Part shown: positions 2,673 to 51,789 of the stretch, piece after piece | How positions within the stretch are numbered: position 1 is the stretch's first letter | How the letters are laid out: each line of letters opens with the position of its first letter | The notes under the pieces: generated by a model | Database searches by the model: none | Told to the model about the DNA's origin: nothing | Seen by the model: the letters and a program-made list of their open reading frames with translations, nothing else | Assembly (NCBI GenBank): GCA_945882915.1 | Contig: CAMCWV010000004.1 | Coordinates: 15,643-79,642, forward strand | DNA length: 64,000 nucleotides | Direction of reading: 5' to 3' | From: Waddlia chondrophila WSU 86-1044 | GTDB taxonomy: Bacteria > Chlamydiota > Chlamydiia > Chlamydiales > CAMCWV01 | Program-made: the position numbers and the translations under genes

Positions 2673-2880
2673 CTGTAGGAGCCGAGCGAAGCGAGGCTCT
2701 TTGGAGTGCTGGGACTTGTCCTAGCTTTGTTAGGCCTCGACATGTCGAGGCCGTACGACGTAGTAGATTACAAAACTTTGTTGTAATAAAGACACTTATA
2801 CGACCTCGACATGTCGAGGTCTAACAAAGCTAGGACGAGTCCCAGCACTCCAAAGAGCCTCGCTTCGCTCGCTCCTACAG
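2673..2880. repeat. Family A nested palindromic element, copy A1
   Basis: ~78-bp inverted arms (ctgtaggagccgagcgaagcgaggctctttggagtgctgggacttgtcctagctttgttagg... and its reverse complement). Each arm ends in a perfect 20-bp palindrome (ggcctcgacatgtcgaggcc; gacctcgacatgtcgaggtc). Homologous copies at 35388-35568 and 43832-44019. Confidence 0.9.
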
Positions 2881-2900: not shown

Positions 2901-4727
2901 TTATTCAACGGTGACTGATTTGGCGAGGTTGCGGGGTTGGTCAATTTCGGTGCCGCGCTCTTTTGCGATGTAGTAGGCAAGAAGCTGCGTGGCCACTGTC
3001 GCAGGGATGGGGGCGAGCTCGTCGATTGTTCGTGGAACATGGATAAGGTCGTTTGCAATGGAATCAAGCCCTTCAGCCCCTTCGGGAGCAATCGCAATAA
3101 CCATTCCGCTTCGCGCCTTTACTTCCATCAAATTGCTTAACGTTTTTTCGTAGGTCAGCATGTCCCCGCAAAGGGCAATGGTGGGGCATTTTTCATTGAT
3201 AAGGGCAATAGGTCCATGCTTCAACTCTCCGGCAGGATAGCCGTTGGCGTTGATGTAGGAGATCTCTTTTAGCTTTAAGGCTCCTTCAAGACTCGCTGGA
3301 TACATGTAGCGGCGTCCCAAGAAGAAGAAATTGTCGTACTTCGCGTACTTCTTTGCTATTTTTTCGATTGCAGGGGCCTGCTCAAGAACCTTTTGCACTT
3401 GTTCGGGTAGGTTTCTAAGGGCGGCAATGAACTGCTGTCCTTTGGATTTGCTCATGCTGCGCATTCTGGCCATGAGGACGGTGAAAAGAGAGAGGACGAT
3501 GAGCTGGCTAGTGAAGGCTTTGGTCGAGCATACGCCAATCTCAGGTCCTGCATGGAGGAAAAGGCAGCTGCTGGCTTCTCTAGCAAGTGTTGAGCCTTGT
3601 ACGTTGCAAATCCCAAGGACCTTTGCCCCTTTGGCTTTGAGCTCGCGCATTGCTGCGATAGTGTCGGCAGTTTCCCCCGACTGGCTAATGGCAATTGCCA
3701 AAGTCCCCTCAGGGACGATGGGGTTCTTGTAGCGCAGCTCTGAGGCGATTTCTACTTGCGTGGGGATCCGTGCAAGGTCTTCGAGCATGTAAGCGGCGAC
3801 ATTTCCTGCGTGCCATGAGGTGCCGCAAGCAACGATAAGGATCTTTTTTACACCAAGTAGCTCTTCTTCTTCGAACTTTAACCCTTCGAGAGAGATCGTT
3901 CCGTAATCTTCAACAAAGCGTGAAAGGAGTGCGTTGCGAATTGTTTGAGGCTGCTCAAAGATCTCTTTTAGCGTGTAGTGCTCGTAGCTTCCTTTGGAGA
4001 TGTCAGAGATAGAAGTGTCGATGGAAGAGGTCTTTCTCATGACCTGCGCGCACGTTTGGTCAAAGATTTGCAGGCTGTCTGCTTTGACGATAGCAACTTC
4101 GCCCGCTTCTAAGAACAAAACTTCTCTTGTGTGGACGAGGAAGGCATTGCTGTCAGAAGAGATGAAAGTCTCGCCGTTGCCAACGCCAATGGCTATGGGG
4201 CACTCTTTAGCAGTAACAATGATTTGGTCAGGGTGAGACTTGTGGATGATGGCAAGAGCGTAGGCCCCTTTAAGCATCGGCACTACTTGTTGAATCGCTT
4301 TGAGAAGGTCCCCTTGATAGAGGCTTTGGATAAGGTGGGCAACCACTTCGGTGTCGGTCTCTGAGCGGAAGTTGACCCCATTTTTTTGGAGCATCTTCCG
4401 AAGGCTGTCATGGTTTTCGATGATCCCGTTGTGGACGATCGCCAGCGAGTGATCCATGTTAAAGTGCGGGTGGGCGTTCACTTGATTGGGCTTGCCATGT
4501 GTCGCCCATCTGGTATGGGCGATGGCGATATCAAGTGAGAGGTTGGTTCCTTGAATGAGTTTTTCTAGCTTAGAAACCTTTCCTTCTTCTTTGCAATAAG
4601 CGATCTTCCCCTGAAAGACTCCAGCAATACCTGCGGAGTCATAGCCGCGGTATTCGAGCTTCTTTAGTCCGGCAAGAGCTACGTCAACTGAATTTTGAGC
4701 CCCAATGTATCCAAATATGCCACACAT
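2901..4727 (-). CDS. glmS: Glutamine--fructose-6-phosphate aminotransferase
   Basis: 608 aa. N-terminal MCGIFGY (Ntn amidotransferase Cys), SIS-domain body, C-terminal AKSVTVE typical of GlmS. Lies 13 nt downstream of glmM on the same strand. Confidence 0.97.
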   Translation of the reverse strand: MCGIFGYIGAQNSVDVALAGLKKLEYRGYDSAGIAGVFQGKIAYCKEEGKVSKLEKLIQGTNLSLDIAIAHTRWATHGKPNQVNAHPHFNMDHSLAIVHNGIIENHDSLRKMLQKNGVNFRSETDTEVVAHLIQSLYQGDLLKAIQQVVPMLKGAYALAIIHKSHPDQIIVTAKECPIAIGVGNGETFISSDSNAFLVHTREVLFLEAGEVAIVKADSLQIFDQTCAQVMRKTSSIDTSISDISKGSYEHYTLKEIFEQPQTIRNALLSRFVEDYGTISLEGLKFEEEELLGVKKILIVACGTSWHAGNVAAYMLEDLARIPTQVEIASELRYKNPIVPEGTLAIAISQSGETADTIAAMRELKAKGAKVLGICNVQGSTLAREASSCLFLHAGPEIGVCSTKAFTSQLIVLSLFTVLMARMRSMSKSKGQQFIAALRNLPEQVQKVLEQAPAIEKIAKKYAKYDNFFFLGRRYMYPASLEGALKLKEISYINANGYPAGELKHGPIALINEKCPTIALCGDMLTYEKTLSNLMEVKARSGMVIAIAPEGAEGLDSIANDLIHVPRTIDELAPIPATVATQLLAYYIAKERGTEIDQPRNLAKSVTVE

Positions 4728-7672: not shown

Positions 7673-8482
7673 GTGAAGACACCTGTTGTAACAAGCTCTG
7701 AGCTGAAGACTCCTTGGGGATCTTCCATTCACTACGCAGGTCCAGGTCTTATGGCAGGTCTTATAGAACAGCCGCCTTTGCCAGCGTTTTTCTATTTTTC
7801 GCTCTCTGGACAGGCAAGCTTGACCCTAGACCCCTACAATCAGCCCGTAGCTTTTTTGCTAAAACAAAGCCAGCTATTAAATCGGCCAGTCCGTTGTTAT
7901 TCTCTGAATCTTCCCGGGCATGGAGAGCCAAAGTCATTTGAAGGGGCCATGAAGTTTTGGGCCTCTTCTTTTGCTAAAGAAGACATTATTCAGCTCTTTG
8001 TTAAAGAGGCTATAGAGTCCATTAGCTATCTGATTGATCAAGGGTATGTTGACCATAAACGTATTGCAGTAGGGGGGCTTTCTAGAGGGGGATTTGCCGC
8101 GTTGCATCTAGCAGCAGCAGATCCGCGCATTGGATCTGTGCTCGCTTTCGCGCCGCTACTTGATCTGGGGGTCGTCTCTGAATTTAAAGAGATTAAAGAC
8201 TCTCCGCTTGTTTGCGCGAGCTCTGCAGATCATTTGGTAGAGAAGCTCGTGAATCGGAATGTTCGACTCTATATTGGCAATCGAGATACGTGCGTTGGGA
8301 CAGAGCCTGCCTTTCGATTTATCCAGAAGCTTGCAGAGGCTGCTTATCACTCAAAGCCATCGGTCCGCTCTCCAAAGGCAGAGTTAATTATTGGCCCTTC
8401 TGTTGGGCATCAGGGGCATGGGACGCTTCCCCATGTATTCTTGGATGGAGCTGAGTGGATTATTAACATATACTCCTCGTAG
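7673..8482 (+). CDS. Alpha/beta-fold hydrolase (esterase/dienelactone-hydrolase-like), substrate unknown
   Basis: 269 aa from GTG. Nucleophile elbow GGLSRGG and C-terminal HQGHG. The last codons and stop (atatactcctcgtag) lie inside repeat D1. Confidence 0.6.
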   Translation: MKTPVVTSSELKTPWGSSIHYAGPGLMAGLIEQPPLPAFFYFSLSGQASLTLDPYNQPVAFLLKQSQLLNRPVRCYSLNLPGHGEPKSFEGAMKFWASSFAKEDIIQLFVKEAIESISYLIDQGYVDHKRIAVGGLSRGGFAALHLAAADPRIGSVLAFAPLLDLGVVSEFKEIKDSPLVCASSADHLVEKLVNRNVRLYIGNRDTCVGTEPAFRFIQKLAEAAYHSKPSVRSPKAELIIGPSVGHQGHGTLPHVFLDGAEWIINIYSS

Positions 8483-8540
8483 CTGAAAATGGGAATTTGG
8501 CGCCGTCCAAGTTCCCATTTTCAACTAAGAGAAGTATAAT
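8468..8540. repeat. Family D hairpin element, copy D1 (short variant)
   Basis: atatactcctcgtagctgaaaatgggaatttgg ... ccaagttcccattttcaactaagagaagtataat. Homologous to 35263-35360, 38482-38555 and the half copy at 27775-27804. Confidence 0.85.
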
Positions 8541-8567
8541 AAAATTATAACGCTGTGTTGTTTTGCT

Positions 8568-11894: not shown

Positions 11895-11999
11895 GCCTTT
11901 GCCATCAAGAGCTTCGCTACCGCCCCGCTCCGGGCACGCTAACCAACAAGCGTTAAACAGGTTAAACGTTGACTCAAAGGCTCGCTGTGTAAAGGCCTG

Positions 12000-14084: not shown

Positions 14085-17000
14085 ATGAAAGATCGTTTTG
14101 CTGTTGGTTCTTTTCAAGACAACATGAAACAGCTCTATACCGCCCATATCATCCATAGGCAAGGGGATCCCAATGTCGAGGTTGCGGGGAAAGAGCGGCT
14201 AAAGCGCACCCAGGAAATTAGCACATTTGCTGTTCGCCATTTGATCAAAGCCAAGGCCTTGCAAAGCGGCGATAAGATCGAGGTTGACGAGTACTATAAA
14301 AAGATCCGCGTTTCCAATAAAGAAAAGTTTAAGTCGTTTTCCTTTAAAGAGTTGGGGATTCTCTTTGACAAAGGCTCACCAAAAAGTAAGCATACAGATG
14401 ATGCGTTGCCTCAGGTAACAGTCGAGGCCTTTGCCGAATCCCTTGTCCATAACATCCCTTTTGCCAAGTCTGCTCGCCTTCGCTACCTAAAAGACGCTGT
14501 TCTTGACCGGTATGCCATGTTCTATTTCACTGACTATCTGTGGGATACGTGGAAAATGCTCTCGATGAACGGGCTTCTTTGGAATATGCTCTCTTTGCCA
14601 GAGAGGATTTTTCACTACGGTCTTGCGGCCATCAACCTCTTGGGCTACGCCTATTTTAGCATTAGAGATCTCGCTAAAAACAAGTTCCCTCAGCTTAAGC
14701 GGGAATTCACCATGTGGATGTTCCAGCGAAATAAGGTCCCTCTTTCTTTGATAGATGCAATGGAAGGGGTTATTCAGTTTTTAGAGATGAAGCGGTCACA
14801 ATCAGCTGAGTACGATCAGGTCATCAATGAATACAAAGCCTGCCGGCGCATAGCCCTTGAGCTTGAGAAGATAAAGGGCTGGACAGTGCCTTTTCAGGTA
14901 AGCGGCGTTAAGAGGCTCGCTGAAAGGCAGGGGAAGGCTATTTCGCAGCTTAATGAGGGGCAGCGTCATCTTGTTCCGGGTGGGGTTTATAAAAATGGGC
15001 AGTTCATCCCTTTTCTCTATGAATTTGAACGGGGAATGGGGGAGGAAAAAGATAAGTGCCTTGTCCGTATCATTGATGTTCACGGGACGTTTTCTTCTTA
15101 TCAAGGGAGTGTCCAAAATGAAGAGACGGGAAAGCTAAAGGCGATCCCTTACATTTCGTTTACGATGGATCTTGCTAGAGCCTCTAATGCAGAAGATGTC
15201 TTGCAGCCACTCTTGGAGCTTCAGCTCCCGGCAGCTTATGCGGAGTTTAAAGCGCCAGAGACGATTGAAATGGCAAGAGCGTTCCTCCAAACGGGCCTTC
15301 TTAAGGCAGCCGATAGAGTTGAGTCGTTGCAAGATCATTGGGCAATACGCCGCGTGGGGAACTATGCCATTGTGCCTGCTCTAAAAGGACTTTCTGGAGT
15401 AACGCAGGTCATTTCGAACTGCTTTGGTTTTGCGGATCTTGGATCAGAGACTCTCGAGAGGATCCTGCCAGAGCTTCAGAAGCTTGACTATCCTAAGAAT
15501 CCGGAGCCGGATGATCCGAAGCTTATGAAGCTTGCAAAGCAAGGAAAGGGGGCCTACAAAACTGCCTGGGCGCTTTTGAAGCTCCGCTTCCCAGATCAAT
15601 GTGCCCGTCTGCAATTGGAGCTTAAATATACCGTTCTCTGTCAGCTTTTTGAAAATGAGAAGGCGCTGCTGTCTAAAGATGCAGGTGCTAGAGAGAGGGC
15701 GGTCATTCGGGAGTGTATTCAAGAGTGGGCTGATTTATTTGAAAAGAGCGCTCCAAAGTTATTTGCTAATGACGACATTCAGCTGCAAGAAGTCCACGGA
15801 ATGAATGAGCGGTTGGAGGGGATTCTTCAACAAATTCAAAAGATGGAAGAGGGGCTTGTTCGTCCTGTTAAAGAGCTTGTAATTCCAAAAAGATGTGTAA
15901 CAACCAATCATGGAAGCGTTGGTCTTTCTGCGCTTGCTCATGTCGATGGTTATGCGCCGATCCCTGCTAAATCGCTTGCGCCTATTATTTCAAGAAGTGT
16001 GATTGACTGGGCTCAAGGTCCTTCTGTCTCGGTGGCTGCTTTTGAGGGGTATCTTAAAGAGATGGACGCTCTTTGTAAGAAGGGTGATGATCACAAGTGG
16101 GAGGCCATTGACGTTGCTGCTGTGGATCTTTTGCGGCAGCTGCCAATTCCAACAGTGGGTGAAAGTATAGATCCTGTTTGGGATAGCAAGATGACGCCTG
16201 AGCAAATTTCGCATTGGCAAGAACTTGTGCACAGAGCGCGTGAATACGTCTGGAAGGCAAATCACATAAGGCAGACAGATGGGGTGACAGGGGTACATGC
16301 CGAGGCGCTTGCTAGAAGTGCAGCTGTGAGTCTAAAGCTGGCAATGCGTAATAAAGATGTAAACATGATAGGGCCTGTTGCGGGAATGGACCTGAGTCCC
16401 TTCGAGGCCATCACAGACAACAAGACCTTCTATTTTGCAAGTAAGGAGCAAGAAGATTCGGTGAGGGGTTGTCTTGACTTTATGCGAGAGGTAAATAAGC
16501 TATCTGAAAAAGAGTTCCCCCTGAGTGGGATTCACCTGTTAAACAAATCTTTAGGTGTTGGGGGAATACAAGATTGGAGGGAGGAGAGAGCGCTCTGGAT
16601 ATATGTAGAGGCTATTTACCAGAAGATCCATGGAGTTTTCGATTTTGATTGCGCTCTTAATCCAGCAGAGCGTTTTAAACATTTAAGAGAGGTGTCAACC
16701 TCTCTGGACTACCCTAGGCTTCCTGGAGTTAAGAAGCATCTTTCGACGCTGAAAGCTGTTTTACAGAAGCTTCCCCCAAAAGACTACACGGAGATTGCTA
16801 AGTTAAAGACGCTTCTTGAGCGTTTACCACAGGCATTTGAGTTTACTGGAGAGGATGCTGCTATTGAAGGTAAGTTAAAGGCGCTCAGTGACGAGCTGAA
16901 CTTGTTGCGTGAGCAGCTTAAGATCAAAAAAGACATCCCTCTCACATCCATTGGAAAGATGTACCCTAGAGAGATTTCGCAAGTTACTGGGGGGGAGGCA

Positions 17001-20000
17001 AAGAAGTTTTATGAGCTTCAACAGAAAGCAGAGATTTTAGCCGATTTAGGAGAGAAGGGGTACAACCATCCAGATATCACCCATTTGCGCCTTTGTGATT
17101 TGCAGTTAAAGACAATGCTTTCTAATCGCAACTGCTATTACGAGCGCGGCGTGATGGGGCTTTCTAAAGAAGCAGCCTTTCAAGCTTACGGCATTGCCCG
17201 TGGAGAGGTGCGCCTCGATAAATTTAGCAAAGATTTTGAGGCAACACGCCGCCGGTTCATCTCTTATGCGATGTCTAAAAAAGGGGAGCCTTACTTTTCG
17301 TTTAGAAGAGAGGGGAATACACAATCTTTTATCGACTACCTGGCGAGCTACAAGTGGGGTCTGGATTTCTTTTTGCTCAGTACAGGGCTTTCACTTGGCA
17401 ACACCTTTATGGCCGGTGGAATTAAGGCGCTTTTGATGGAAATTCTTCGGCTGATTTTTTCGTTGGAGTTTTGGGCGTTGGGGGGGATTTTTGGGTCTTC
17501 GTGGTTGATCTACCGCAATATGTATGGGCATGCACTTGTACGTGCTGATGTGATGTGTGAGCCTTATGGGCTCTGTTTGGGGTCTTGGGATCATCATAGG
17601 TATGACTTTGCTCGCAGCCGGGATGCAGAAGGGATTGGTAAGCCCTACGGAGGGTCTGGAGATGATGCTTTCAACCGTACTAGGGTCATAAGGGAAGATG
17701 TCGTTGGATTTCGCATTGGCGCCGATGATTATGATCCTTGGACTGCAGAAAAGACAGAGCAGAAAGTTATTGCAGATGCAGAGAGAATCGGAGAGCTTAC
17801 TCTTGAGCAGTCACGGGATTTGCAAAGAACGCGGCTTAACGCTGCTGAGATTGGGGAAGTCCTTGATTATTACTCAGATAACCCACTTCTTTTAGAAGAA
17901 GGTCCCCATCAACACCTTTTAGAGCGCGCATTGACTAGATATGGAAAAATGACCGAAGCGCTCGGTAGGCAGCCAGAGCTTGTCGCCCGCTTTAATCGCT
18001 TTTTCTCTAAGCAACTTAACTGGGCGCGCATGGGGCAAAAGGTGCAGGAGCAGCTTTTTCTGGCCCGCTTGTCAGAGCGTGTTAACACCTATATTTCAGA
18101 TAATGATGTGGCTAAAATCGTTTTTCACGCCCTGCCAAAAGAAGGTGGCGAGGCTGAGATTGGTACTGCTGTTTTGCGGGTGTTAGGCGAATTGGAACGC
18201 GACCAGACTCTTGGAAGGAGCCGGTCTTCGCTCAATACAGAGCTTCTTCGGAAGCTTCAGGAAAATGCGCGACTGCTTGCAGATCAAACAGGTCGATTAG
18301 CCAGGGAAGCTAAAGAGGCTCGATCAGCGCTTTCAGTTCGAATAGCTGAATTAGAAGGGGAAATTCGAAGAGTTCTTGCCGCTCAAGCCGCTCAAACCGC
18401 TGGAGGCTTTCAAATATATAGCAGGAACAAACCTGATCCACTAGAGGCTGAATTTGCAAGTCTTCGACTCAAGCAGGAAGATGCAAGCGCTCGATTAGCA
18501 CCTGGAGTTGCAAGTGCTCAATTAGAGTTTGTGAAGGGGCTTGATAGGTTTGGCGATGATATAGAAGGGCTTTCTAAAGAGATGCTTGAAGATCTCGAAA
18601 ATTCTAAGCTTCAAGAAGCGGTTATCGCGCTACAGGATCTTCTCAAGAAAGTAAGAGAAGGGATTCCAAACCGCCTTCTTTCAAAACAGATTCTCGACCA
18701 GTGCGTCAAGCAGTGCCGTGATGGGACCGCTGCTTATTTAAAGCATTTAGTCCCCATCCACGCCCATATCATCGCCGCGTACGCTTCTTATTCTGAAGCA
18801 GAGTTGCAATCTCTGGGTACAGAAGAGCTCCTTAGCGTTATCAAGAGCTTCTTTGTTGTGCGCGGCGCCGAAGAGGACGCAGCACATCGCGATCCTGTGT
18901 TTAATGATAGTGTCAATGAGGCTGTCTTAAAGCTGATGCCTATTTTTAAAGGACGTCTTAGTGATGATGCAACGAAAGAGCCACTCCTTAACGCTATTTT
19001 ACGAGCCGTTCACCCCGAAGCTACTGATCAAAAATGGGAAGGGACATCGACCTTTTTTACCTGTAAAGATTGGGAAATCGACATTGCCAACGGGCGTGTT
19101 TACCATCAAGGTTACTTAAAAACAGAGCTCCCCTATTCGGTTCTAAAGAATGAGGGTGTTCTTCGTCTTTTTGGCGGAGGGCCCATTCCTTGCAAGCTGC
19201 AGTGCAGCCAGAACTCTTATAATAAGAGTCAGGTGAGAAAGTTTACTTTTGAGAAAGGGGGCGATCACTACTCCATTATTCAGAGAGCTGACGAGTCGAT
19301 TGCCATCTACAAAGAGATCCTTAATATCCATACAGGCGTTCAGTCTTGGCATCAATGGATTCATCAGGAGATGCAAGGAGAAGAAAGTAAGGTGGCCTCA
19401 GCAGAGGACCGGGCGGGAAGAAGAACCTTGCCTAAGCCTGTGACAGATAACATTTGCTGGGTCGATTGTGATCAGCCCGCACACTTCCTTATTTGTGATG
19501 AGGGAGGAAAGGAGCTTTATAGGGGCACTTTGAGGGGGAAGAGTATTTATAGCTTGTACAACCTCAAGTACCCAGAAGGAGAAAACACCGTTCTTCGCGT
19601 TTGGGGTAATAAATCTTCACTTGAAGCGTTAACACGCATCGCTCCCCCTGAGCAGATTGAAGTGTTGGGGACGGCGGAAGGGGCTCCTAAGACCATTGTT
19701 TATCATAATTACAATCAGTCATTCTCTATTGATGAAGAGGGGATTGCTCATAGCGGAAATGATGCCCACTTTGTTCTTACCGACAAGCAAAAGTTGAATG
19801 TGAGGGGGCTTGGAAGCCACTTTCAGCACTTCCAAGTCGTTAAGCACGATGAAGATCAGATTGAAAGGGTGCTTATTCCTGCCAGTGAGATTGCCCAGAC
19901 AGTAAATTCTTTGAGCGCGCAGGCTGTGGGAATGGGCGTTGATGCGGTAACAGGGATTGCGACAGGAGGGAGGACCCCTCAGCAGGCCCTTGGTAACATG

Positions 20001-23000
20001 CAAAAGCAGCTTGCAAATGTTGCTAAGACAGAGCTTATTAAACAAGGGCTGTGGCTTATATTTAAGACCTATATGGGCAGTCGCCTCAGCGCGTTCTTTG
20101 GCCCAGACACCGATTCTAAGGCAGAGACTCCCGAAGTGACTTTCAAATACCAGAGTCAAAGTGACCTTCTTGCTTTTGAGATAGACCCTTATGACAGACG
20201 TTTTAAAACAAAGAACAAAGAGTCGTATCTCTATTTGTCTTACATGTTCTTGGCTTACGGAAAGCACAAGGAGGCGCTCTATTATTTAAAACAGGCAAAG
20301 ACCTCTCTTGCTTGGAGCGATAAAGCCAAAGACTATATTCGGTTAATGCAACAGTGGCCAGATGACTCTGCTGCTTCCAAGGCATTTAAGCTGCAGCTTG
20401 AGTTGATGTTCTGCGAAAATCAGATGAGCTTGCTCGGAGATGACCTTAAGAAAAAAGACACCTCCTTTAAGGGGATGCGCACCTACATTACGCTTATGGG
20501 ATTGCAGGTCCGTTATGAAGAGTATCAGGAGATTGAAAAGAAGCTGCCGGGAGATCTTCATTTAACTAGTGGTGATAAACGCGTTTACATGGAGCTTTTA
20601 TCGCAACTGGCTACCATTACGGGGCAAAAGCCAAAGCCTACAGTGCCAATCATCCCTCTTGCAGAAGAGACAGTTGATCCTTCGTCCATTACCCCTCCAC
20701 ATCTGGACTTTGGGGGAAACCCGTTGCTTGATATGCGTAAAAAGTTTAGTAGCACCCTTTATTATGCCCAGGAGAGCAAAAGATCGAGCAGAAGCACGCT
20801 CACTACTAAAATCAAGTTTGGCGATGAGGGATTCAAGGTTAGAGCGGGAAGGGAATTGATTCGGAACTTCGATGTTTACTTGAACATTGCAACAACGAAA
20901 AATCCTGGAGATAAAGAGTTTGATGATCTTTGCAAGCGGCTTGATCTTATGGGAGATAAGATCAAAGAGGTGCAAATGGCTAGATGGTATTTGCATGTTG
21001 CAACGGAGCTGCGAAGGAAAGGGGAGGGTCTTTCTTCTATAAAGCTCCCTGAATTTAAGTTTGAGTATGAAACTAAAAATCAGAGAGATCAGAGAGCAGG
21101 AGTTTTGCCTTCTGTAGCACAGCCTGGAGGATTTTGGGAAAAGTCACCGGCGGCTAGTCCTTCTGGGATGTTTTTGGGCAGAGTTAAGGATTCGTTTTCA
21201 TGGGCGTGGGATAGGATAAAGAAATACACGTTTTGGCAGGCTTATAGTCTGGTTTCTACAAGTGAACTTGACAGCAGATATCGCCAAGAGCTTGTAGATG
21301 ATATCGATAAGGTGTGCGGCGAGTTAGATAGCCTTGCCCGGCATAACGGCATTGGCAGTGTGAAAAAGCGCCCTCCACGTGGCGGGGCACGCCCTGTAGT
21401 TGAGGCTCAATCAGAAGTTCAGCTTCTTGCAGGGAAGGCAGAAGCACGCCGCAAGCTCCAAGAGCGGGCCGCGGGTAACAGCAATCTGGGGGGCGTTATC
21501 CAGGGACTTGGAGGGCTTGATAGCCTCGGAGGGTTCCTTCAACAGGTGATCTCTCAAGGAGCTCACGGAATTACCTCTATTCAGCAGATGATCCCTGTCC
21601 CTTTTAGACCGCTTCTTTCTGGAAAAACTGAAACGCTTCATCGCATCGAAGAGGCCCTTGACGGTATTTTAGAAAAAGCAGAAGAGGTTCTTGCTAAGAT
21701 CCCCGGAAGCACGCGAGATCAAAAACGAGATGCCCTCATGCAATGGCTAAAGATGCAAGTCAGCGGGCTTGGAGATAATCCGACAGCAAAGATGATTTGG
21801 GCGGTCACAGGGCCGGCGCTTGGGATTGACTTAGAGGTTGCAGGGCTCATTGTAGAGGCCTATTCCGAGTCGATTATTCAGGGGATTCTTCTTGTTCTTG
21901 ATACCCGGACCCCCTCGGCTGTTAAGCGGCACTGGCGAGCTGCAATGGACAAGGAAATTGACCTTCATTCAGAGCACCTTAAGCGGCTTGATGCAGTTGA
22001 AGAGGCCCTTAACAAATGCGTTAAACAGAAAATCCCGAGTTGGGAGGGGATCTTTACAACGCGGGGTGTAGAGATGTCTCGAGAGGATTACTTCCATCTA
22101 GATACGGGGATTCCTAAACTTGCTGCAGATGCTTTTAAGAAGGAGTGGAGATTTGGGCTTGACAAGGTCGCACGGGGCGAGGTCGCACGGGGTGAGTTGA
22201 ACCCTGAAAAAGTGGAGATTCAGGTGATACGTAATAGGGTAAGGACAGAGCTTGGCGATTACCTTTGTGGGAAGAGAACGCTTCCTCCTAAATGGCTCTT
22301 TAATCCAGAGGCGAAAGATCTTTTTGAGTCGGTCATTTTCCTTCATGAACAGTTGCAGGAGCGTTTGCCGGGCTTTTTATGTCCTGTTATTGTTGCTCAA
22401 GAAAAAGAACTCTTATTTGATGTTCTTAAAACGGCATCTTTAATACCTCAAGAGGTGCAATTAGAGTGCATCACAATTGAACAAGTCAATAAATACTTTG
22501 AAAATTTAAAAACCTCTTGGACAGGCCCAGGGGGGACCATCCCTCCACATCGCAAGCGTGTGCTCGATAGAGAGTGGACCGACGCACAGCATACGATTAC
22601 TGAAAAGAAGGCGAAGGCTCAGACAGAAGGTTTTAAACTTCCTATTCCTAAAACAGCAGTAGAGGCGCACAGTCAGCTTGGTGAAATTAAAATTCTTCGC
22701 GATCAGGCGATTGAAAAGGGGCAGGAGCTGCAGAAGAAAGCAGAAGACTCTCGGACGAAGGCACTTCGTCTTATTAATGACCCACCACTAACGCCTCTTA
22801 AACAGGCCTATCAAGATCTTCATGTTCTTGTAGATAAGCATGAAGAGGTGTTTTTCCCTGAGGTGAAGCGTTTGTGGCTGCAGGGAAGGCTTTTTGATCT
22901 GTGCAAAAAGAATCCTCAGCTAACACACGAAAATTTAGCTGAGTTAGAAGGGTTTGTTACAGAGCACCTTCAAGCAGGTAATGAAGCCGTTCAGGCCCAG

Positions 23001-26000
23001 CGCCTTTGCCGTGCTTTCCAGTCTCTTGAAGAAGGGGTGCAGAAGGTAGTTAATCCAAAAGGGCTCTCTAAAGAGAAGCGGGAGCAGCTCCCATTGAAGA
23101 TTAAAGAGGCTCACTCTTTGATTACGCAGCAGCTTTCGTTGGCCCGTACCTACAAAGTGGACTCTTCACAGCTTTATTCACGCGCTTGTCTGATGATCGA
23201 GAATGTCAAAGGGTATGTTCTTCGCCCTGAGCAGGTGGAGGTGTTCTACGAGCTTTCTAGAGACCCTACCAAGGTGAAGCAGCTCATTATGGGGTCGGGG
23301 AAAACAGAGGTGGGGAACGTTGTCATCATGTTGATGTTGGCAATGGGGAACAATCTCCCACGCTGGATTGGGCCAAAAGCGCTCTTTAATGTTAATAGTA
23401 GAGATCTTGACAGCATTTGTCCTGAACACTTTGGGCAAGAGCTTTATCGGTTTGAATTCGAAAGGAACATGCTCAAGGATGCCGCCTCGGTACAGAAGAT
23501 CTATCACAGAGAGATGGAGACGATGGCGGGCCGTGGGTTTGCCATGAACACGCGGGAGAGCATGCAGTGCGCCGAGCTCTACTGGCTAAAGAACATTGAG
23601 GATCTTGAGAAGGCTCCTGTGGAGGCAACCGAGGATCTGGAGTCGCAAGACAAATATTTGACAGAGCTTTTGAAGATGTGGCGTAAACGAGGGTACATCC
23701 TCAACGACGAAGTCGATAGCGTAAACGATCCTACCCACCAGTACATTTTTGCGTGTGGCGCTTCTGAAAAGCTCGGCAAGCAGCCGATTAAGATCAATGC
23801 AGCACTTAATATGATGCGTTTGATTTTGAAAAACCAAGAGTGGAAAGAGCGGCTAAAAATCAAAAACAACCTCCAGCAGAACCTCTCTGAAAAAGATCAT
23901 GAAGAGCTGCGGCTGTTTGTTGCTAATTGCTTTTTTGATGAGTGTGTCACGAAAGGAAGTCTTAAAGAGGAAAATCGTGAAGAGTTCATCCTTTTTGTAA
24001 CAGGGGACCAGCGTACTGTTAAGATCCCTGCGTGTGTGACGCTCTCTCCAGACAAAGAGTTTTTTAAGGAGGTGGCTGTTGTTAAGACGCTGCTTACGAC
24101 AATTGTTGAAGGAGCTTTGAGCAAGAAAGGGAACGTCAACTACGGCCCTGAGATGTTTGAGGAGATGCAGAATGGGAAGAAAGTCTTCAGGAGAGGTCGC
24201 TGGGTTGTTCCTTATATTGCCCATGGAAAGCAAAGGCCAGGAAGCATCCACGGTAATGAGCTTGAAAGGATCATCTTCCACATCTTGAGTTATCTCCAGC
24301 TGGGGGTTACTTTCGATCAAATTAAAGAGAGGCGTGACACTCTTCAGGCTGAGGCAATTACCTTGAAGCAGTCAGAGCAGTACGCGCCGGGCGCGACCTC
24401 TCCTGAGCAGCAGTGGAGATCTTACGGCTGGACAGGAGAGGTCGCGCTTCTTGATGTTACAGATGAAGATCTTAGAGGTGTTGTAGAAACCCTCAACAGC
24501 ACAGAGGGGGATCTTGAGGAGGAGTCAATCCTGAAATACTTGGAGCAGGTGCTTCTTCCTGAAATGGAAATTCACGGCCAGACACTGGAAAGTAATTCTC
24601 AGAATTTTGGTGATCAGAATAGGTTCTTTGCGGGCTTCTCTGGAACTGTCGGCAAAATCTATGCCTTGAATGATAAGATCACTGAAAAGAGCAAGACGGC
24701 AAGGCTTGGGACAAACGGGGAGACTCTTGAGGCGATCCTTCGAAAGAGCAATAACGGAATGGATGAGGTTGACACCTATGGGGGTGAGACCGCAGAAGAG
24801 CGTGTTAAGGAGCTTTTAGAAAAGTGCAAGGGAGCCAACTTCTTTGTCGATGGAGGGGCGGCGCTTGACTGTACCGATCCTCAGGAGTTTGCTGCTCGCT
24901 GCGCTGAGGAGCAGTCTAAAATTGAGATCAGAGATCAAGCGCACAAGATTGTAGGGGTTGTCTTCTTCAATAAGGAAGATAGCTGGGTTGTTCAGTTTGT
25001 TGGGCAAGATCATCCAACGCCTGTTGAGGATGTAGGGGGTGTGGCTCTCAAGAACTTATTCACCCTTTATGACCATGGACACCGTATTGGGGCGCATAGG
25101 CTTCAAGATGCTTCAGCAGAGTTTGTGGCAACTGGGGGCGCTAAGACCGATTTTGAAGATGCCGCTCAGAGTTGGGCCCGTGCAAGGGGGCTTTGGACGA
25201 AAAAACAGAAGCCTAGACACCTTGTTTCAGATGAGACCAGAAAGCTTATTAAGGGCAAAGAGAGCAAAGAGCCTTTACTTGTCGGGGAGTATGTGGGGCA
25301 CCTCTTTGCCAACCAGGCAGATGAAGAGGCAAAGGCAAATTACAAAGCCTCGCGTCACAAGATCATGAATATCATGCGCAGCGCTCTTATTAGTTCACTT
25401 CTTGACGCTCCTGATGCGTACGCTAGAAGAGATCTTCTTAAGTGCTACAAAGAGCATCTTTTTAAGACGAGCTCAGAAAATTATATAGCGATGCTTCAGG
25501 TCGAGAAGATGGATACGCCAGAGAATGCGTTAAAAGCACTTATCGAAGCTGAGCAGGATAAGATCACGGGGATTTTGGGCGCTCTTCCAGAGCGTCTTCT
25601 TGGGGGGCAAGAAGGTCTTTTTAAGGCTGCATATCAGCGGCTTGAGGCCTATAAAGAGCCAAGTGCTACGGGAGATACTCCAGGGATTCTCCCGCCAGAA
25701 TTTTATCCTGAAAAAGTGCCGATGCACGAGTCTTCTGCCCAAACAGAGGTTACTGTTGAGCAAGAGCAAGAGGCCGAGCAAGAGGCAGAGGAGGAGCTTG
25801 ACCTCGAAACCAAGAAGCAGGTCGCCCAGAACAACTTTAAGAGCAAGTGGAAACCTTGGCTTACAACTGGAAGGTCATCTCCACTACTGTATAGATTCAT
25901 GTCTGAGACAACTTCGCAGCTTGATAGCAAGCTAGGGGATGAGTTTAAAGGGGTATTTGATAAGCGTGTGCTTTTCTCTCCAAATATGATTCCGCAAGGT

Positions 26001-26528
26001 GAAAGAGCTTTGTGGGGATACCAAAAGCCGATACATGATCTTTTGGTGGTATATGGTCTTTCTGGAAAAGCGTGGACGGTTATTGCCTGTGATGCCCTAG
26101 ACAAAGACCGGGAGCTAGAAGATCTATTTAAAAAGCACAAAGACCCTGATATTAAAATAGGGCACTACTCGATGCGTGAAAAGAAGATGCAGAGATGGAG
26201 TAACGCTTTTAGTGATGAGGAGCTTGGATCAGAAGGTTTCTTGAGGTTAACGGTGCAGTGTCACTTCTTTAATGCTGAGACTCATTACCAAGGGATAGTT
26301 GAAAAGGATTCTCGCAAAAACACAGAGTACTCTGTTCTTCAGAAATGGTTAAGCGAGCACCCGCATGACAAGATGATTAAGCTCTATAAGAGCTCGGCTG
26401 CAGTCTTCCGCGACAAAGCGCAGAAGTACGAGAAGAGTGTTCTTAGTAAAGGGTTTGCCTCCATCAAGAGCGTTCAAGAGGCCGAAATTTCAAGGCGTCA
26501 AGCTGAGCGCCTCTTAAAAAGGCCGTAA
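14085..26528 (+). CDS. Giant (4147 aa) multidomain protein of unknown function with a C-terminal-third P-loop NTPase module; candidate secreted/inclusion-membrane protein
   Basis: A single uninterrupted 12.4-kb frame. Hydrophobic blocks at nt 14508-14670 and 17358-17520. Walker A GSGKT at 23292-23306 and DEVD at 23706-23717. Acidic run EQEQEAEQEAEEE near the C-terminus. The start has no obvious SD. Confidence 0.85.
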   Translation: MKDRFAVGSFQDNMKQLYTAHIIHRQGDPNVEVAGKERLKRTQEISTFAVRHLIKAKALQSGDKIEVDEYYKKIRVSNKEKFKSFSFKELGILFDKGSPKSKHTDDALPQVTVEAFAESLVHNIPFAKSARLRYLKDAVLDRYAMFYFTDYLWDTWKMLSMNGLLWNMLSLPERIFHYGLAAINLLGYAYFSIRDLAKNKFPQLKREFTMWMFQRNKVPLSLIDAMEGVIQFLEMKRSQSAEYDQVINEYKACRRIALELEKIKGWTVPFQVSGVKRLAERQGKAISQLNEGQRHLVPGGVYKNGQFIPFLYEFERGMGEEKDKCLVRIIDVHGTFSSYQGSVQNEETGKLKAIPYISFTMDLARASNAEDVLQPLLELQLPAAYAEFKAPETIEMARAFLQTGLLKAADRVESLQDHWAIRRVGNYAIVPALKGLSGVTQVISNCFGFADLGSETLERILPELQKLDYPKNPEPDDPKLMKLAKQGKGAYKTAWALLKLRFPDQCARLQLELKYTVLCQLFENEKALLSKDAGARERAVIRECIQEWADLFEKSAPKLFANDDIQLQEVHGMNERLEGILQQIQKMEEGLVRPVKELVIPKRCVTTNHGSVGLSALAHVDGYAPIPAKSLAPIISRSVIDWAQGPSVSVAAFEGYLKEMDALCKKGDDHKWEAIDVAAVDLLRQLPIPTVGESIDPVWDSKMTPEQISHWQELVHRAREYVWKANHIRQTDGVTGVHAEALARSAAVSLKLAMRNKDVNMIGPVAGMDLSPFEAITDNKTFYFASKEQEDSVRGCLDFMREVNKLSEKEFPLSGIHLLNKSLGVGGIQDWREERALWIYVEAIYQKIHGVFDFDCALNPAERFKHLREVSTSLDYPRLPGVKKHLSTLKAVLQKLPPKDYTEIAKLKTLLERLPQAFEFTGEDAAIEGKLKALSDELNLLREQLKIKKDIPLTSIGKMYPREISQVTGGEAKKFYELQQKAEILADLGEKGYNHPDITHLRLCDLQLKTMLSNRNCYYERGVMGLSKEAAFQAYGIARGEVRLDKFSKDFEATRRRFISYAMSKKGEPYFSFRREGNTQSFIDYLASYKWGLDFFLLSTGLSLGNTFMAGGIKALLMEILRLIFSLEFWALGGIFGSSWLIYRNMYGHALVRADVMCEPYGLCLGSWDHHRYDFARSRDAEGIGKPYGGSGDDAFNRTRVIREDVVGFRIGADDYDPWTAEKTEQKVIADAERIGELTLEQSRDLQRTRLNAAEIGEVLDYYSDNPLLLEEGPHQHLLERALTRYGKMTEALGRQPELVARFNRFFSKQLNWARMGQKVQEQLFLARLSERVNTYISDNDVAKIVFHALPKEGGEAEIGTAVLRVLGELERDQTLGRSRSSLNTELLRKLQENARLLADQTGRLAREAKEARSALSVRIAELEGEIRRVLAAQAAQTAGGFQIYSRNKPDPLEAEFASLRLKQEDASARLAPGVASAQLEFVKGLDRFGDDIEGLSKEMLEDLENSKLQEAVIALQDLLKKVREGIPNRLLSKQILDQCVKQCRDGTAAYLKHLVPIHAHIIAAYASYSEAELQSLGTEELLSVIKSFFVVRGAEEDAAHRDPVFNDSVNEAVLKLMPIFKGRLSDDATKEPLLNAILRAVHPEATDQKWEGTSTFFTCKDWEIDIANGRVYHQGYLKTELPYSVLKNEGVLRLFGGGPIPCKLQCSQNSYNKSQVRKFTFEKGGDHYSIIQRADESIAIYKEILNIHTGVQSWHQWIHQEMQGEESKVASAEDRAGRRTLPKPVTDNICWVDCDQPAHFLICDEGGKELYRGTLRGKSIYSLYNLKYPEGENTVLRVWGNKSSLEALTRIAPPEQIEVLGTAEGAPKTIVYHNYNQSFSIDEEGIAHSGNDAHFVLTDKQKLNVRGLGSHFQHFQVVKHDEDQIERVLIPASEIAQTVNSLSAQAVGMGVDAVTGIATGGRTPQQALGNMQKQLANVAKTELIKQGLWLIFKTYMGSRLSAFFGPDTDSKAETPEVTFKYQSQSDLLAFEIDPYDRRFKTKNKESYLYLSYMFLAYGKHKEALYYLKQAKTSLAWSDKAKDYIRLMQQWPDDSAASKAFKLQLELMFCENQMSLLGDDLKKKDTSFKGMRTYITLMGLQVRYEEYQEIEKKLPGDLHLTSGDKRVYMELLSQLATITGQKPKPTVPIIPLAEETVDPSSITPPHLDFGGNPLLDMRKKFSSTLYYAQESKRSSRSTLTTKIKFGDEGFKVRAGRELIRNFDVYLNIATTKNPGDKEFDDLCKRLDLMGDKIKEVQMARWYLHVATELRRKGEGLSSIKLPEFKFEYETKNQRDQRAGVLPSVAQPGGFWEKSPAASPSGMFLGRVKDSFSWAWDRIKKYTFWQAYSLVSTSELDSRYRQELVDDIDKVCGELDSLARHNGIGSVKKRPPRGGARPVVEAQSEVQLLAGKAEARRKLQERAAGNSNLGGVIQGLGGLDSLGGFLQQVISQGAHGITSIQQMIPVPFRPLLSGKTETLHRIEEALDGILEKAEEVLAKIPGSTRDQKRDALMQWLKMQVSGLGDNPTAKMIWAVTGPALGIDLEVAGLIVEAYSESIIQGILLVLDTRTPSAVKRHWRAAMDKEIDLHSEHLKRLDAVEEALNKCVKQKIPSWEGIFTTRGVEMSREDYFHLDTGIPKLAADAFKKEWRFGLDKVARGEVARGELNPEKVEIQVIRNRVRTELGDYLCGKRTLPPKWLFNPEAKDLFESVIFLHEQLQERLPGFLCPVIVAQEKELLFDVLKTASLIPQEVQLECITIEQVNKYFENLKTSWTGPGGTIPPHRKRVLDREWTDAQHTITEKKAKAQTEGFKLPIPKTAVEAHSQLGEIKILRDQAIEKGQELQKKAEDSRTKALRLINDPPLTPLKQAYQDLHVLVDKHEEVFFPEVKRLWLQGRLFDLCKKNPQLTHENLAELEGFVTEHLQAGNEAVQAQRLCRAFQSLEEGVQKVVNPKGLSKEKREQLPLKIKEAHSLITQQLSLARTYKVDSSQLYSRACLMIENVKGYVLRPEQVEVFYELSRDPTKVKQLIMGSGKTEVGNVVIMLMLAMGNNLPRWIGPKALFNVNSRDLDSICPEHFGQELYRFEFERNMLKDAASVQKIYHREMETMAGRGFAMNTRESMQCAELYWLKNIEDLEKAPVEATEDLESQDKYLTELLKMWRKRGYILNDEVDSVNDPTHQYIFACGASEKLGKQPIKINAALNMMRLILKNQEWKERLKIKNNLQQNLSEKDHEELRLFVANCFFDECVTKGSLKEENREEFILFVTGDQRTVKIPACVTLSPDKEFFKEVAVVKTLLTTIVEGALSKKGNVNYGPEMFEEMQNGKKVFRRGRWVVPYIAHGKQRPGSIHGNELERIIFHILSYLQLGVTFDQIKERRDTLQAEAITLKQSEQYAPGATSPEQQWRSYGWTGEVALLDVTDEDLRGVVETLNSTEGDLEEESILKYLEQVLLPEMEIHGQTLESNSQNFGDQNRFFAGFSGTVGKIYALNDKITEKSKTARLGTNGETLEAILRKSNNGMDEVDTYGGETAEERVKELLEKCKGANFFVDGGAALDCTDPQEFAARCAEEQSKIEIRDQAHKIVGVVFFNKEDSWVVQFVGQDHPTPVEDVGGVALKNLFTLYDHGHRIGAHRLQDASAEFVATGGAKTDFEDAAQSWARARGLWTKKQKPRHLVSDETRKLIKGKESKEPLLVGEYVGHLFANQADEEAKANYKASRHKIMNIMRSALISSLLDAPDAYARRDLLKCYKEHLFKTSSENYIAMLQVEKMDTPENALKALIEAEQDKITGILGALPERLLGGQEGLFKAAYQRLEAYKEPSATGDTPGILPPEFYPEKVPMHESSAQTEVTVEQEQEAEQEAEEELDLETKKQVAQNNFKSKWKPWLTTGRSSPLLYRFMSETTSQLDSKLGDEFKGVFDKRVLFSPNMIPQGERALWGYQKPIHDLLVVYGLSGKAWTVIACDALDKDRELEDLFKKHKDPDIKIGHYSMREKKMQRWSNAFSDEELGSEGFLRLTVQCHFFNAETHYQGIVEKDSRKNTEYSVLQKWLSEHPHDKMIKLYKSSAAVFRDKAQKYEKSVLSKGFASIKSVQEAEISRRQAERLLKRP

Positions 26529-26594
26529 GCCCCTCTAACCGCTCTAAATAAAAATCGCGGAAGCGAAGCTCTTTGAGTTGCCGCAAAAATCAAA

Positions 26595-26684
26595 CAGGGG
26601 CCTGAAAGGTCCTAATGTTACAGCGGGAAGCCTTCCGCTAACGCTTCGACCTCAGGCTGTAACATTAGGACCTTTCAGGCCCTT
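26595..26684. repeat. Family B palindromic element, copy B1 (short variant)
   Basis: caggggcctgaaaggtcctaatgttacagc ... gctgtaacattaggacctttcaggccctt. The arms match B2 at 51575-51789. Confidence 0.85.
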
Positions 26685-26706
26685 GTTCAATTAATGTGTT
26701 CAGCTC

Positions 26707-26982
26707 GGCATTGCCCGCGTAATTGCAATTGCAGCCTTACAGGCTGCATGGGATATATTCGCTTATACCCAGGGCGCTGCCCTGGGCTATGTGCATTTTC
26801 AGCCCTTCAGGCTGAAGCTGGGGAGCTGAGGCGCTTTTAGTTAAAGCCTTTTGCATAAAGTCTCAGCCTGTAAGGCTGAAAATGCACACAGCCCAGGGCA
26901 GGCGCCCTGGGTATAGGCAAATATATTTTACGCAGCCTGTAAGGCTGCTACTCTTAGGGGGCTGTAATTATGCAATAATGCC
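26707..26982. repeat. Family C nested palindromic element, copy C1 (full length)
   Basis: Termini ggcattgcccgcgtaattgcaatt / ctgtaattatgcaataatgcc. Local hairpins gcagccttacaggctgc, cccagggcgctgccctggg and agcccttcaggct, each mirrored in the right half. Homologs at 55650, 63076, 50189 and 61065. Confidence 0.9.
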
Positions 26983-27774: not shown

Positions 27775-27804
27775 CTATACTCCTCTTAGCTGAAAACTGG
27801 AATT
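27775..27804. repeat. Family D half copy (D2, left arm only)
   Basis: ctatactcctcttagctgaaaactgg matches the left arm of D1/D3. No matching right arm follows. Confidence 0.6.
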
Positions 27805-28350
27805 CTATAATTTTTTGAATGGTTGCGGAAAAGGTTGGGTTGATCCTATAGTTCTAGACTAGGGTGACTTCATAGGTCACAGCTGGGAATGTTAAGGACG
27901 CTCCATGATACATCATTTTAATGCGTTATCGCGTCCTCTCCCAGTAAAAAAATTATCAAAACGAACACTTCGAAAGGGTGTCGTTCGTGTAAAGAGTTGG
28001 ATAGTAGTCGGATTCGGTATTTTTAGCCTTTTAAGAGGCATTTCCCCTTTTAAGCTTAGAGCTGTGTAAGAGTTTCCGGGCAAGTGGTAATCAGTTCCTT
28101 CAGAGCGTAGTTAGGGTATTTCAATTTTTAACTCGCGGCCTGTTGAATAAAAAGATTTTTGGTACGGCGCGCAACGCATGATTATACATAAGGAAAACTT
28201 TCTTCATCATTCTAAGCGCTCCTCTGGATCTATCATGGGGATATCCATGGAAATGCCACTAGAAATATCATTAGGGTCTAGACTTTTGTGACTATCAGCA
28301 ACGCTCAGTACACCAACGCATAGCCTTTCGTCAAAACACAGGTTGACGAA

Positions 28351-35262: not shown

Positions 35263-35360
35263 ATATACTCCTCGTAGCTGAAAACGGGAACTTGAACGGC
35301 GCCAAAGCCCCGGGGCTTTGGCGCCGTTCAAGTTCCCGTTTTCAACTACGAGGAGTATAT
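35263..35360. repeat. Family D element, copy D3: 98-bp near-perfect palindrome
   Basis: 49-nt arms atatactcctcgtagctgaaaacgggaacttgaacggcgccaaagcccc / ggggctttggcgccgttcaagttcccgttttcaactacgaggagtatat. There is a single mismatch (C opposite A). Confidence 0.95.
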
Positions 35361-35387: not shown

Positions 35388-35568
35388 GGAGTGAGCGGGG
35401 CGAACTCTTTGGAGTGCAGGGACTTGTCCTAGCTTTCATTAAGCGGGACATGTCCCGCTTAAGACACATAGGTATGCTTGCTAAGGTTCAGAGGGCTCGA
35501 CATGTCGAGCCCTAATGAAAGCTAGGACAAGTCCCAGCACTCCAAAGAGCTACGCTACCGCTTGCTCC
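35388..35568. repeat. Family A nested palindromic element, copy A2
   Basis: Outer arms ggagtgagcggggcgaactctttggagtgcagggacttgtcctagctttcatt / aatgaaagctaggacaagtcccagcactccaaagagctacgctaccgcttgctcc. Inner palindromes ttaagcgggacatgtcccgcttaa and agggctcgacatgtcgagccct. Confidence 0.9.
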
Positions 35569-50188: not shown

Positions 50189-50262
50189 GGCGTTGCCCGC
50201 ATAATTGTAATTGCAGCCTTACAGGCTGCTACTCTTAAGGATCTATAATTATGCAACAACGC
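50189..50262. repeat. Family C minimal derivative, copy C4
   Basis: ggcgttgcccgcataattgtaattgcagccttacaggctgctactcttaaggatctataattatgcaacaacgc. This is the two C termini plus one hairpin, with the whole interior missing. Confidence 0.8.
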
Positions 50263-51558: not shown

Positions 51559-51574
51559 CCCGCAAAATTCAAAT

Positions 51575-51789
51575 AGGGGCCTGAAAGGCCTTAATATTAC
51601 AGCCCAGGTCGAAGCGTTAGCGTAAGGCCTGGGTAAGACGAAGTATTCAATCTGAGTCCTGTAAGGACGGTAGAAATTGAAGTTATTAACTATGCCGTCC
51701 TTACAGGACTCAGGGGTTTATTGCATTTTACCCAGGCCTTACGCTAGCGCTTCGGCCTGGGCTGTAATATTAAGGCCTTTCAGGCCCCT
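51575..51789. repeat. Family B nested palindromic element, copy B2 (full length)
   Basis: 62-nt arms aggggcctgaaaggccttaatattacagcccaggtcgaagcgttagcgtaaggcctgggtaa and its complement, with 2 mismatches. An inner palindrome gagtcctgtaaggacgg...ccgtccttacaggactc lies at 51653-51712. Confidence 0.92.

Follow-up and report, generated by a model that had tools for sequence, protein, structure and literature searches.

A nested palindromic repeat in a chlamydial genome is probably a fast-changing member of the REP/REPIN class

Gene context and organization of Family A

The stretch of DNA analysed here (the window, 64 kb) encodes, according to its Pfam annotation, ordinary housekeeping genes, with about 12 kb taken up by a single gene for a 4147-aa protein carrying a DUF3638 domain (~14085-26529, +). 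Towards its left end an open reading frame (110-2665, +) converges with glmS (2901-4727, -; Pfam GATase_6/7 and SIS domains), and the gap between the two stops is filled by a 208-nt nested palindrome (2673-2880), the first copy of a repeat called Family A. A sequence-only reading of this DNA had placed the element there, described it as free of ORFs and reported two more copies of the same plan, all of which was borne out: copy 2 lies at 35388-35568 and copy 3 at 43832-44019, each of them likewise flanked by the 3' ends of two convergent genes. The glmS product shares 65-70% identity with its closest counterparts, of which the named ones are assigned to Chlamydiae, Chlamydiales, Waddliaceae, Protochlamydia and Waddlia; since identity to any relative is at most 70%, the window comes from a novel environmental chlamydia. 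Exact matches to its proteins also occur in several ENA metagenome assemblies, in the NCBI MAG GCA_947446165.1 and in Logan assemblies.

The layout announced by the same reading (outer arms, two perfect inner palindromes and an AT-rich spacer) is seen in all three copies, the inner palindromes measuring 20-24 nt and being centred on GACATGTC. Each arm consists of an outer extension of ~20 nt (GGAGCGAGCGGTAGCGAAG) and a REP unit, the latter formed by a foot (CTCTTTGGAGTGC), an 18-nt hairpin of the type GC-NNN-GAC-NN-GTC-NNN-GC and a GCTTT tail; this small hairpin inside each outer arm had been missed. Copy 1, to which as a whole no strand is assigned, opens with the left extension GGAGCCGAGCGAAGCGAGG (2678-2696, +), a lineage-specific module found in none of the other phyla, followed by the left REP unit (2697-2729, +), whose foot CTCTTTGGAGTGC, hairpin TGGGAC-TT-GTCCTA and tail GCTTTG receive a terminator-like score (hairpin plus TTTGTT). 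Next come the inner perfect palindrome ggcctcgacatgtcgaggcc (2733-2752), a 49-nt AT-rich spacer (2753-2801, 31% G+C) with a small hairpin of its own (ATTACAA...TTGTAAT) and the second perfect palindrome gacctcgacatgtcgaggtc (2802-2821), these three again without assigned strand. The inverted right REP unit (2825-2857, -) and the right extension CCTCGCTTCGCTCGCTCC (2858-2875, +), which is the arm retained in the solo form of other strains, close the element. In copy 2 the REP units occupy 35405-35437 (+) and 35517-35549 (-) and the inner palindromes 35439-35462 and 35492-35513; the corresponding positions in copy 3 are 43853-43886 (+) and 43965-43998 (-), and 43891-43910 and 43942-43961. Two lesser pieces are also present, namely a solo outer arm GGAGCGGGGCGGTAGCGAAGCTC (11909-11931, -) between a DUF374 gene and plsX, where other strains carry a 79-nt mini element, and a degenerate left-end remnant GCGGAAGCGAAGCTCTTTGAGTTGC (26557-26581, +) that adjoins other palindromic repeat families.

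The arm core CTCTTTGGAGTGCNGGGAC occurs six times in the window against an expectation of 0.1, a count reached in none of 100 shuffles. All six inner palindromes are perfect and share the constant core GACATGTC while their distal stems differ; they are palindromes of the CTCGACATGTCGAG type, and among the 16 GACNNGTC sites of the window the extended stem is found at these six only. Their perfection suggests templated copying from arm to arm rather than selection alone.

The family appears to be multi-copy and actively rearranging. Over ~77 kb the tally amounts to three full copies, one mini copy, one degenerate copy, one solo arm and one remnant; every copy is intergenic and located at gene 3' ends, four of the six lying between convergent genes. 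Further copies were found outside the window, and the element is not part of a known IS or tRNA. One of them, degenerate, belongs to the same organism and lies ~2 kb outside the left end of the window (contig L041, 16688-16850), where a canonical terminator with a T run immediately precedes it. A hybrid hairpin, CCCTCGAC-AT-GTCCCAGC, makes up its right half, with half an inner palindrome and half a REP hairpin joined at a GAC-AT-GTC tip. The other, also from the same organism and ~4 kb past the right end (L079, 6159-6194), is a diverged mini REP hairpin, ATTTGGATTGCGGTGTCAAGTCGCCGCAATCCAAAT, whose foot has gone from GGAGTGC to GGATTGC, with a compensating change on the opposite arm (GCACTCC to GCAATCC). 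Together with these two forms, the remnant at 26557-26581 and the contig ends at copy 3 point to several copies and to active rearrangement. Contigs from five assemblies stop at copy 3, either at its outer edge (L052) or inside it (L053-L055, L057), as expected of a multi-copy repeat. The same element is recovered in independent assemblies (L041, L042, L050 and L051, the last two containing copy 2), which excludes an assembly artefact. In practical terms, these elements break metagenome assemblies of this organism, and annotation pipelines should mask or flag them.

Structure of the REP unit and of the long hairpin

The foot TTGGAGTGC is invariant or nearly so and unpaired, as in REPs and REPINs, and it reads GGAGTGC instead of the canonical GTAG (GT[AG]G), which places the unit outside the GTAG class of REPs as defined by Di Nocera et al. 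(2013). The GAC-NN-GTC tip is common to the REP hairpin and the inner palindromes. Positions at which the arms of a given copy disagree are concentrated at the NN tip, which is expected if the local hairpin, and not just the long stem, matters. When 37 distinct units were compared, 88% of the cells of the 8-bp local hairpin were paired (79% in shuffles, 36-56% in slid controls), the covariation score was 0.215 (0.075 in shuffles) and 23 cells showed double changes (9.8 in shuffles), values that none of 500 shuffles attained. The REP hairpin is thus maintained through compensatory changes.

As in REPINs, two inverted units build a long hairpin, with arms of 37-73 nt that are 94-97% complementary. 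The longest are those of copy 1 (2683-2755 versus 2799-2871; 73 nt, 96%), followed by those of copy 3 (54 nt, 94%) and copy 2 (37 nt, 97%), in which the outer arms are degenerate. Folded as single-stranded DNA, copy 3 reaches -86 kcal/mol, against -28 +/- 3.3 kcal/mol for shuffles (z = -17.5). The long stem with two side hairpins proposed by the sequence-only reading holds in RNA folds of copies 2 and 3, whereas copy 1 forms one hairpin of ~95 bp through mutual pairing of its two inner palindromes. A strand bias was sought in G:T versus A:C mismatches; the + strand was better by 1-4 kcal/mol in all three copies, but with one to three mismatches per copy this comparison is uninformative.

Extremely stable predicted RNA folds, situated at gene 3' ends and in four of six cases between convergent genes, also bring to mind an RNA or transcription element selected by the host, that is, a bidirectional terminator or a 3'-end mRNA stabiliser whose repetitive nature would be secondary. 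Classical REPs do stabilise upstream mRNA. Moreover, on each strand TTTGTT or TTTCAT comes after the first REP hairpin that incoming transcription meets, and a loose consensus scan classes this hairpin as terminator-like. The T tail, however, is just 3 nt long, canonical terminators with long T runs exist nearby (L041, 16630-16670), and the element is missing from the corresponding locus in strains that are 99.95% identical. In addition, the inner palindromes show no G:U bias and are perfect whichever strand is read, a symmetry that fits the DNA level better than selection on RNA, transposase genes of other phyla are bordered by the same foot, and no Rfam family is matched. We therefore regard this explanation as unlikely, although the copies may have a secondary role as bidirectional terminator or mRNA stabiliser.

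Searches for other identities gave the following. Rfam 15 yielded no match at gathering score, and a permissive Rfam search returned a plant miRNA hairpin only, spurious at 39.7 against a threshold of 190 bits. No paper was found in the literature with the motif string. An integron attC site was considered for the GTTAGGC...GTCTAAC pair of copy 1, but the order is wrong and the pair is not conserved in copies 2 and 3; for a DNA uptake sequence there was no supporting observation.

Gain or loss between near-identical strains

Two loci, glmS and plsX/DUF374, vary among strains with 97-99.95% identity to the window, so the element is not fixed at orthologous positions. At glmS, the full 208-nt element exists only in the window strain (L041 and L042 being identical to it), while L043, L044 and L058 (the most divergent strain) carry a 32-nt solo-arm hairpin, CTGTAGGAGCGAGCGAAGCGAGGCTCCTACAG, with the core and the other arm absent and the junction located within a GGCTC direct repeat. 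The pattern is reversed at plsX/DUF374: there L061, L062 and L065 have the 79-nt mini element, made of outer arms and a single REP hairpin, as apparently does L063, whose contig stops 4 nt into the element, and the window, L059 and L064 have the arm GGAGCGGGGCGGTAGCGAAGCTC only, with a junction between GCTCTT and GCTCCT. L043/L061 differ from the window by just 5 substitutions in 10.8 kb, yet they are different at both loci. The element has thus been gained or lost between near-identical strains, and Family A is turning over now. One outer arm is retained in every alternative allele.

The solo-arm strains have a common flanking haplotype, so that a single event per locus, in either direction, is enough to account for the distribution. 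Deletion is favoured by the exact identity of the copy 1 arms to the resident solo arm. In addition, the breakpoints fall in short direct repeats made by the arm's own ends (GGAGC...GCTC), which together with the arm match favours loss by slippage across the hairpin. Judging from these junctions, we favour replication slippage as the origin of the polymorphisms, the direction being deduced from the alleles; RAYT-mediated cutting and rejoining at the same sites may also have produced them.

A small, ORF-less element with long inverted-repeat ends that is polymorphic between strains could also be taken for a conventional MITE, meaning a DDE-type insertion sequence reduced by deletion and moved via its terminal inverted repeats. 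Against this, no target-site duplication surrounds any copy, and the polymorphic junctions lie inside the element, leaving one arm behind and no clean empty site. With BLASTN, copy 3 matched no plasmid or phage, and across 27 loci no DDE transposase recurs beside the motif, the sole recurrent neighbour being a Y1/RAYT protein. A MITE origin is accordingly held to be very improbable.

Since slippage between the GGCTC/GGCTC and GCTCTT/GCTCCT repeats accounts for both polymorphisms, Family A might also be a decaying REPIN relic whose RAYT was lost or never present (for example, after an ancient transfer), and which would now change only through replication slippage and arm-to-arm correction of its long palindromes. 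The degenerate or hybrid copies (L041 16688-16850, window 26557-26581) are consistent with decay, as is the fact that no RAYT of this organism was found in the window or among the homologues looked up. However, 96% self-complementarity over the 73 nt of the copy 1 arms and six perfect inner palindromes argue for recent origin or active maintenance, and two indels in 11 kb at 0.05% divergence amount to very fast turnover, leaving the relic as a quite unlikely account.

Relatives in other phyla and the link to RAYT genes

A 19-mer of the arm was scanned against one genome per species, a set from which the source genome was absent. About 25 true elements were found in MAGs of Pyrinomonadaceae (Acidobacteriota), Planctomycetota/Pirellulaceae and Verrucomicrobiota, carrying the extended unit CTCTTTGGAGTGCGGGGACTTGTCACCGCTTTGG as inverted pairs and having foot, hairpin and tail in common with Family A. 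Thirteen other matches (eight deltaproteobacterial and five more) corresponded to coding sequence or chance. The relatives include single mini hairpins (L019), simple inverted doublets (L031, L040) and doublets with two hairpin subtypes within one foot-stem (L011, L022, L003), the last following the same three-way plan as the window elements. The REP of the window differs at 2 of 33 positions from a REP flanking a RAYT gene in Pirellulaceae (L015), and at 1 of 31 from a metagenomic copy (L077).

Among metagenome contigs, the pattern of the outer-extension arm, GCGNNGCTCTTTGGAGTGCNGGGAC, had no match, and a second pattern, CTTTGGAGTGCTGGGACNNGTCC, had seven, of which four were true REPs. The ACATGT palindromes and the outer arm were missing from every one of them, and none was chlamydial-looking. 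In the sequences searched, the outer arm extension and the ACATGT palindromes were found only in the chlamydial lineage. A Pyrinomonadaceae MAG (L038, 84-200) contains a degenerate copy whose tip encloses a second REP doublet (GGACTCTTTGAGGTGCCGGGA / element / TCTCGCACTCCAAGGTCC), and this nested copy suggests that hairpin tips serve as insertion targets. A further Pyrinomonadaceae contig (L031, 3445-3520, -) has a match to a group II intron domain of 39.2 bits, the Rfam threshold being 40; it lies 3 kb from the REP doublet and is probably unrelated to it.

An all-versus-all BLASTP of the ORFs in the relatives' loci disclosed one recurrent protein abutting the motif, in L009 and L015. In the scan with NCBIfam NF047646 (REP-associated tyrosine transposase; curated cut-off 80), which covered these two of five RAYT loci, the proteins scored 83.7 and 81.4 bits, respectively. 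Both carry HUH (NHYH) and Y motifs; with Pfam Y1_Tnp the L009 protein reached 26.2 bits, above the curated cut-off of 23, and the L015 protein stayed below it, while the match to PDB 4ER8 (TnpA-REP) was weak (E = 0.1). In L009, 8 nt separate a REP doublet from the start codon that follows it and the stop is overlapped by a single REP, and in L015 the gene lies between two direct repeats of ~215 nt with a REP at the end of each. REPs with the foot TTGGAGTGC and the GCTTT tail directly flank the RAYT gene in all five loci inspected (L009, L015, L066, L082 and L083/84). Judged by sequence similarity, the arms of Family A are homologous to these RAYT-flanking REPs.

At E <= 1e-10, 5035 homologues of the L015 protein were found, the named ones being mostly from Planctomycetes and some labelled REP-associated tyrosine transposase. 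Nine of the best 120 of them contain near their N-terminus the peptide LECGD, a translation of the REP in one of its reading frames. LECGD(S/L)SPL in the N-terminal regions of P0060, P0089, P0092, P0098, P0101, P0103, P0107 and P0121 is the in-frame translation of the REP TTGGAGTGCGGCGACTCGTCGCCGCTT, meaning that the REP is embedded in the transposase coding sequence. A composite of the peptides encoded by Family A, covering ORFs across copies or a RAYT reading into the REP, had no match in the protein database.

The search for a RAYT and the presence/absence comparison recommended by the sequence-only reading both pointed towards the REP/BIME likeness: arm-homologous REPs flank RAYT genes in five other genomes, and near-identical strains are polymorphic at two loci. 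Pfam annotation of the whole 64-kb window detected no gene for a RAYT or other transposase. Three RAYT homologues picked by source pattern and amino-acid composition (P0086, P0117, P0063) came from samples other than that of the window organism, and looking them up gave further examples of the RAYT-REP association.

Family A as a probable REPIN-type element

The match between RAYT-flanking repeats and the arms places Family A in the REP/REPIN class. It is an elaborate, fast-changing form within that class and not a new type of element; the sequence-only reading, which had not recognised a described repeat family in it, is to be corrected in this respect, and the likeness to REP/BIME noted at the same time is upheld by the arm homology and the strain polymorphism. 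On sequence grounds, we consider it probable that Family A is a REPIN/BIME-type element in which two inverted non-GTAG REP units form a long hairpin, served by a putative RAYT encoded in the genome. Several observations weigh against this: the 64-kb window encodes no RAYT or other transposase, the foot differs from the canonical GTAG tag of classical REPs, the inner palindromes and outer extension are without counterpart in RAYT-flanking REPs, the strain polymorphisms can also be read as slippage deletions alone, and the copies seen amount to only 3 full, 1 mini and 2 degenerate ones plus 2 remnants.

In the model that we propose, a RAYT (a single-domain HUH/Y1 nuclease) encoded elsewhere in the genome would act at the replication fork, where it would bind the single-stranded REP hairpin, read the foot, cut and rejoin, and the doublet would in this way be copied into other intergenic sites at gene ends. 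The binding, reading and cutting steps are modelled on established knowledge of IS200/IS605-type HUH enzymes and TnpA-REP. REPs of the CTCTTTGGAGTGCTGGGAC type would surround the predicted RAYT gene(s) of the source genome. In the chlamydial lineage, the doublet would have gained the outer arm extension of ~20 nt (GGAGCGAGCGGTAGCGAAG) and two extra perfect palindromes with the GAC-NN-GTC tip, and our best guess is that both additions represent accessory hairpins that resemble REPs and arose by nesting at hairpin tips. The copies would then be eroded by replication slippage at 5-6-nt direct repeats (GCTC) from the arm ends, giving rise to mini hairpins and solo arms. Any effect on termination or mRNA stability would be a side effect or secondary use.

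REP, BIME and REPIN sequences mobilised by RAYT (TnpA-REP) are well described, as in the BIMEs of E. coli and the REPINs of Pseudomonas fluorescens (PMC3116915, PMC5581495). Family A shares with them the short hairpin with a conserved unpaired foot (PMC3116915, PMC5581495), the inverted doublets forming a long hairpin, the extragenic location at gene 3' ends, the compensatory changes that keep the hairpin and the homologous units flanking RAYT genes; in addition, the two-subtype doublets of L011 and L022 resemble the Y and Z REP types of BIMEs. In contrast, its foot CTCTTTGGAGTGC has 11-13 nt and differs from GTAG, it reaches ~200 nt with four palindrome layers, including the two extra perfect palindromes of 20-24 nt and the outer extension, and its host is a chlamydia-related bacterium. 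Moreover, REPINs are described as lineage-specific and vertically inherited, whereas a near-identical REP is here found in several phyla.

Non-GTAG repeats flanking RAYT-like genes have precedents in two reports (PMC3733652, PMC6006769). Di Nocera et al. (2013) describe TIRtrons, RAYT-like "TIRYT" genes in Acidobacteria and, for Rhodopirellula baltica, numerous tyrosine transposases flanked by repeats (PMC3733652). They also present RAYT-like genes of Acidobacteria and Planctomycetes flanked by non-GTAG inverted repeats, as in the relatives reported above, some of these repeats being self-complementary and forming moderately abundant dimeric families (PMC3733652). The G-rich motif GGGGWSAS given there resembles GGGGACAC/GGGGACAG of some units, but most units of the present set read GGGGACTT and fall outside GGGGWSAS, a comparison made with the published consensus only; a chlamydial member is not mentioned there (PMC3733652). 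The NHYH and Y[IV]H.N[PA] motifs of the transposases appear comparable to the subclass 2.1/2.8 signatures of Quentin et al. (2018), who also noted that some of these genes have received a REP insertion within the coding sequence, as suggested here by the LECGD peptide (PMC6006769). Subclass 2.1 is, however, listed there as lacking an associated REP structure, while the transposases of the present loci clearly have one (PMC6006769). The likeness to Correia and Rickettsia RPE elements that the sequence-only reading had raised is superficial. Correia/NEMIS (Neisseria) and RPE are indeed small, ORF-less, palindromic and interspersed, but neither has sequence similarity to Family A; Correia elements have TA duplications and an IHF site, neither seen in Family A, and RPEs insert in frame into protein-coding genes, unlike the Family A copies, all intergenic. 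No report of REPIN-type elements in chlamydiae was found in the searchable literature.

REPINs and their RAYT constitute the best-studied case of small mobile DNA persisting in bacterial lineages, and are thought to be vertical and lineage-specific. The REP foot described here is common to at least four phyla including a chlamydia-related lineage, with foot and hairpin 1-2 bases away from non-chlamydial copies, in a nested architecture that is much more elaborate and with gain or loss visible between strains 0.05% apart. An active REPIN-RAYT system in an obligately host-associated chlamydial lineage, with a REP 1-2 bases from those of Planctomycetota, is a tentative proposition that we rate as rather doubtful. 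If true, a REPIN/RAYT pair would have moved between phyla, contrary to the view of these elements as strictly vertical, lineage-specific "intragenomic symbionts". The family would then grow by nesting hairpins into GAC-NN-GTC tips, explaining the multi-layer palindromes, the nested L038 copy and the L041 hybrid hairpin. The co-occurring strains in public metagenomes offer a natural system for questions on REPIN turnover and cross-phylum REPIN-RAYT transfer.

Other repeat families of the window

Three more palindromic families accompany Family A. The second family (window 35263-35360, 8458-8548, 38463-38554 and, partially, 27775-27806; L041 from ~16840 onward) is a 98-nt near-perfect palindrome with a 33-bp perfect core, an arm starting ...CTCGTAGCTGAAAACGGGAAC and a GTAG tag, and may by its sequence be a canonical GTAG-class REPIN. 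It adjoins Family A at two loci, and contigs of five assemblies (L045-L049) stop inside it. The third family (26576-26692 and 51560-51809) has the form CCGCAAAA.TCAAA.AGGGGCCTGAAAGG.C.TAAT.TTACAGC in inverted pairs, with 86-nt arms that are 87% complementary, and the copy at 51560-51809 contains an additional central hairpin, GAGTCCTGTAAGGACGG. The fourth, complex family (26699-26982, 50189-50262, 55660-55860 and 63076-63364) combines GCAGCCTTACAGGCTGC hairpins and CCCTGGG motifs; it is nested, occurs in both orientations and has one copy beside a tRNA gene (55415-55485, -).
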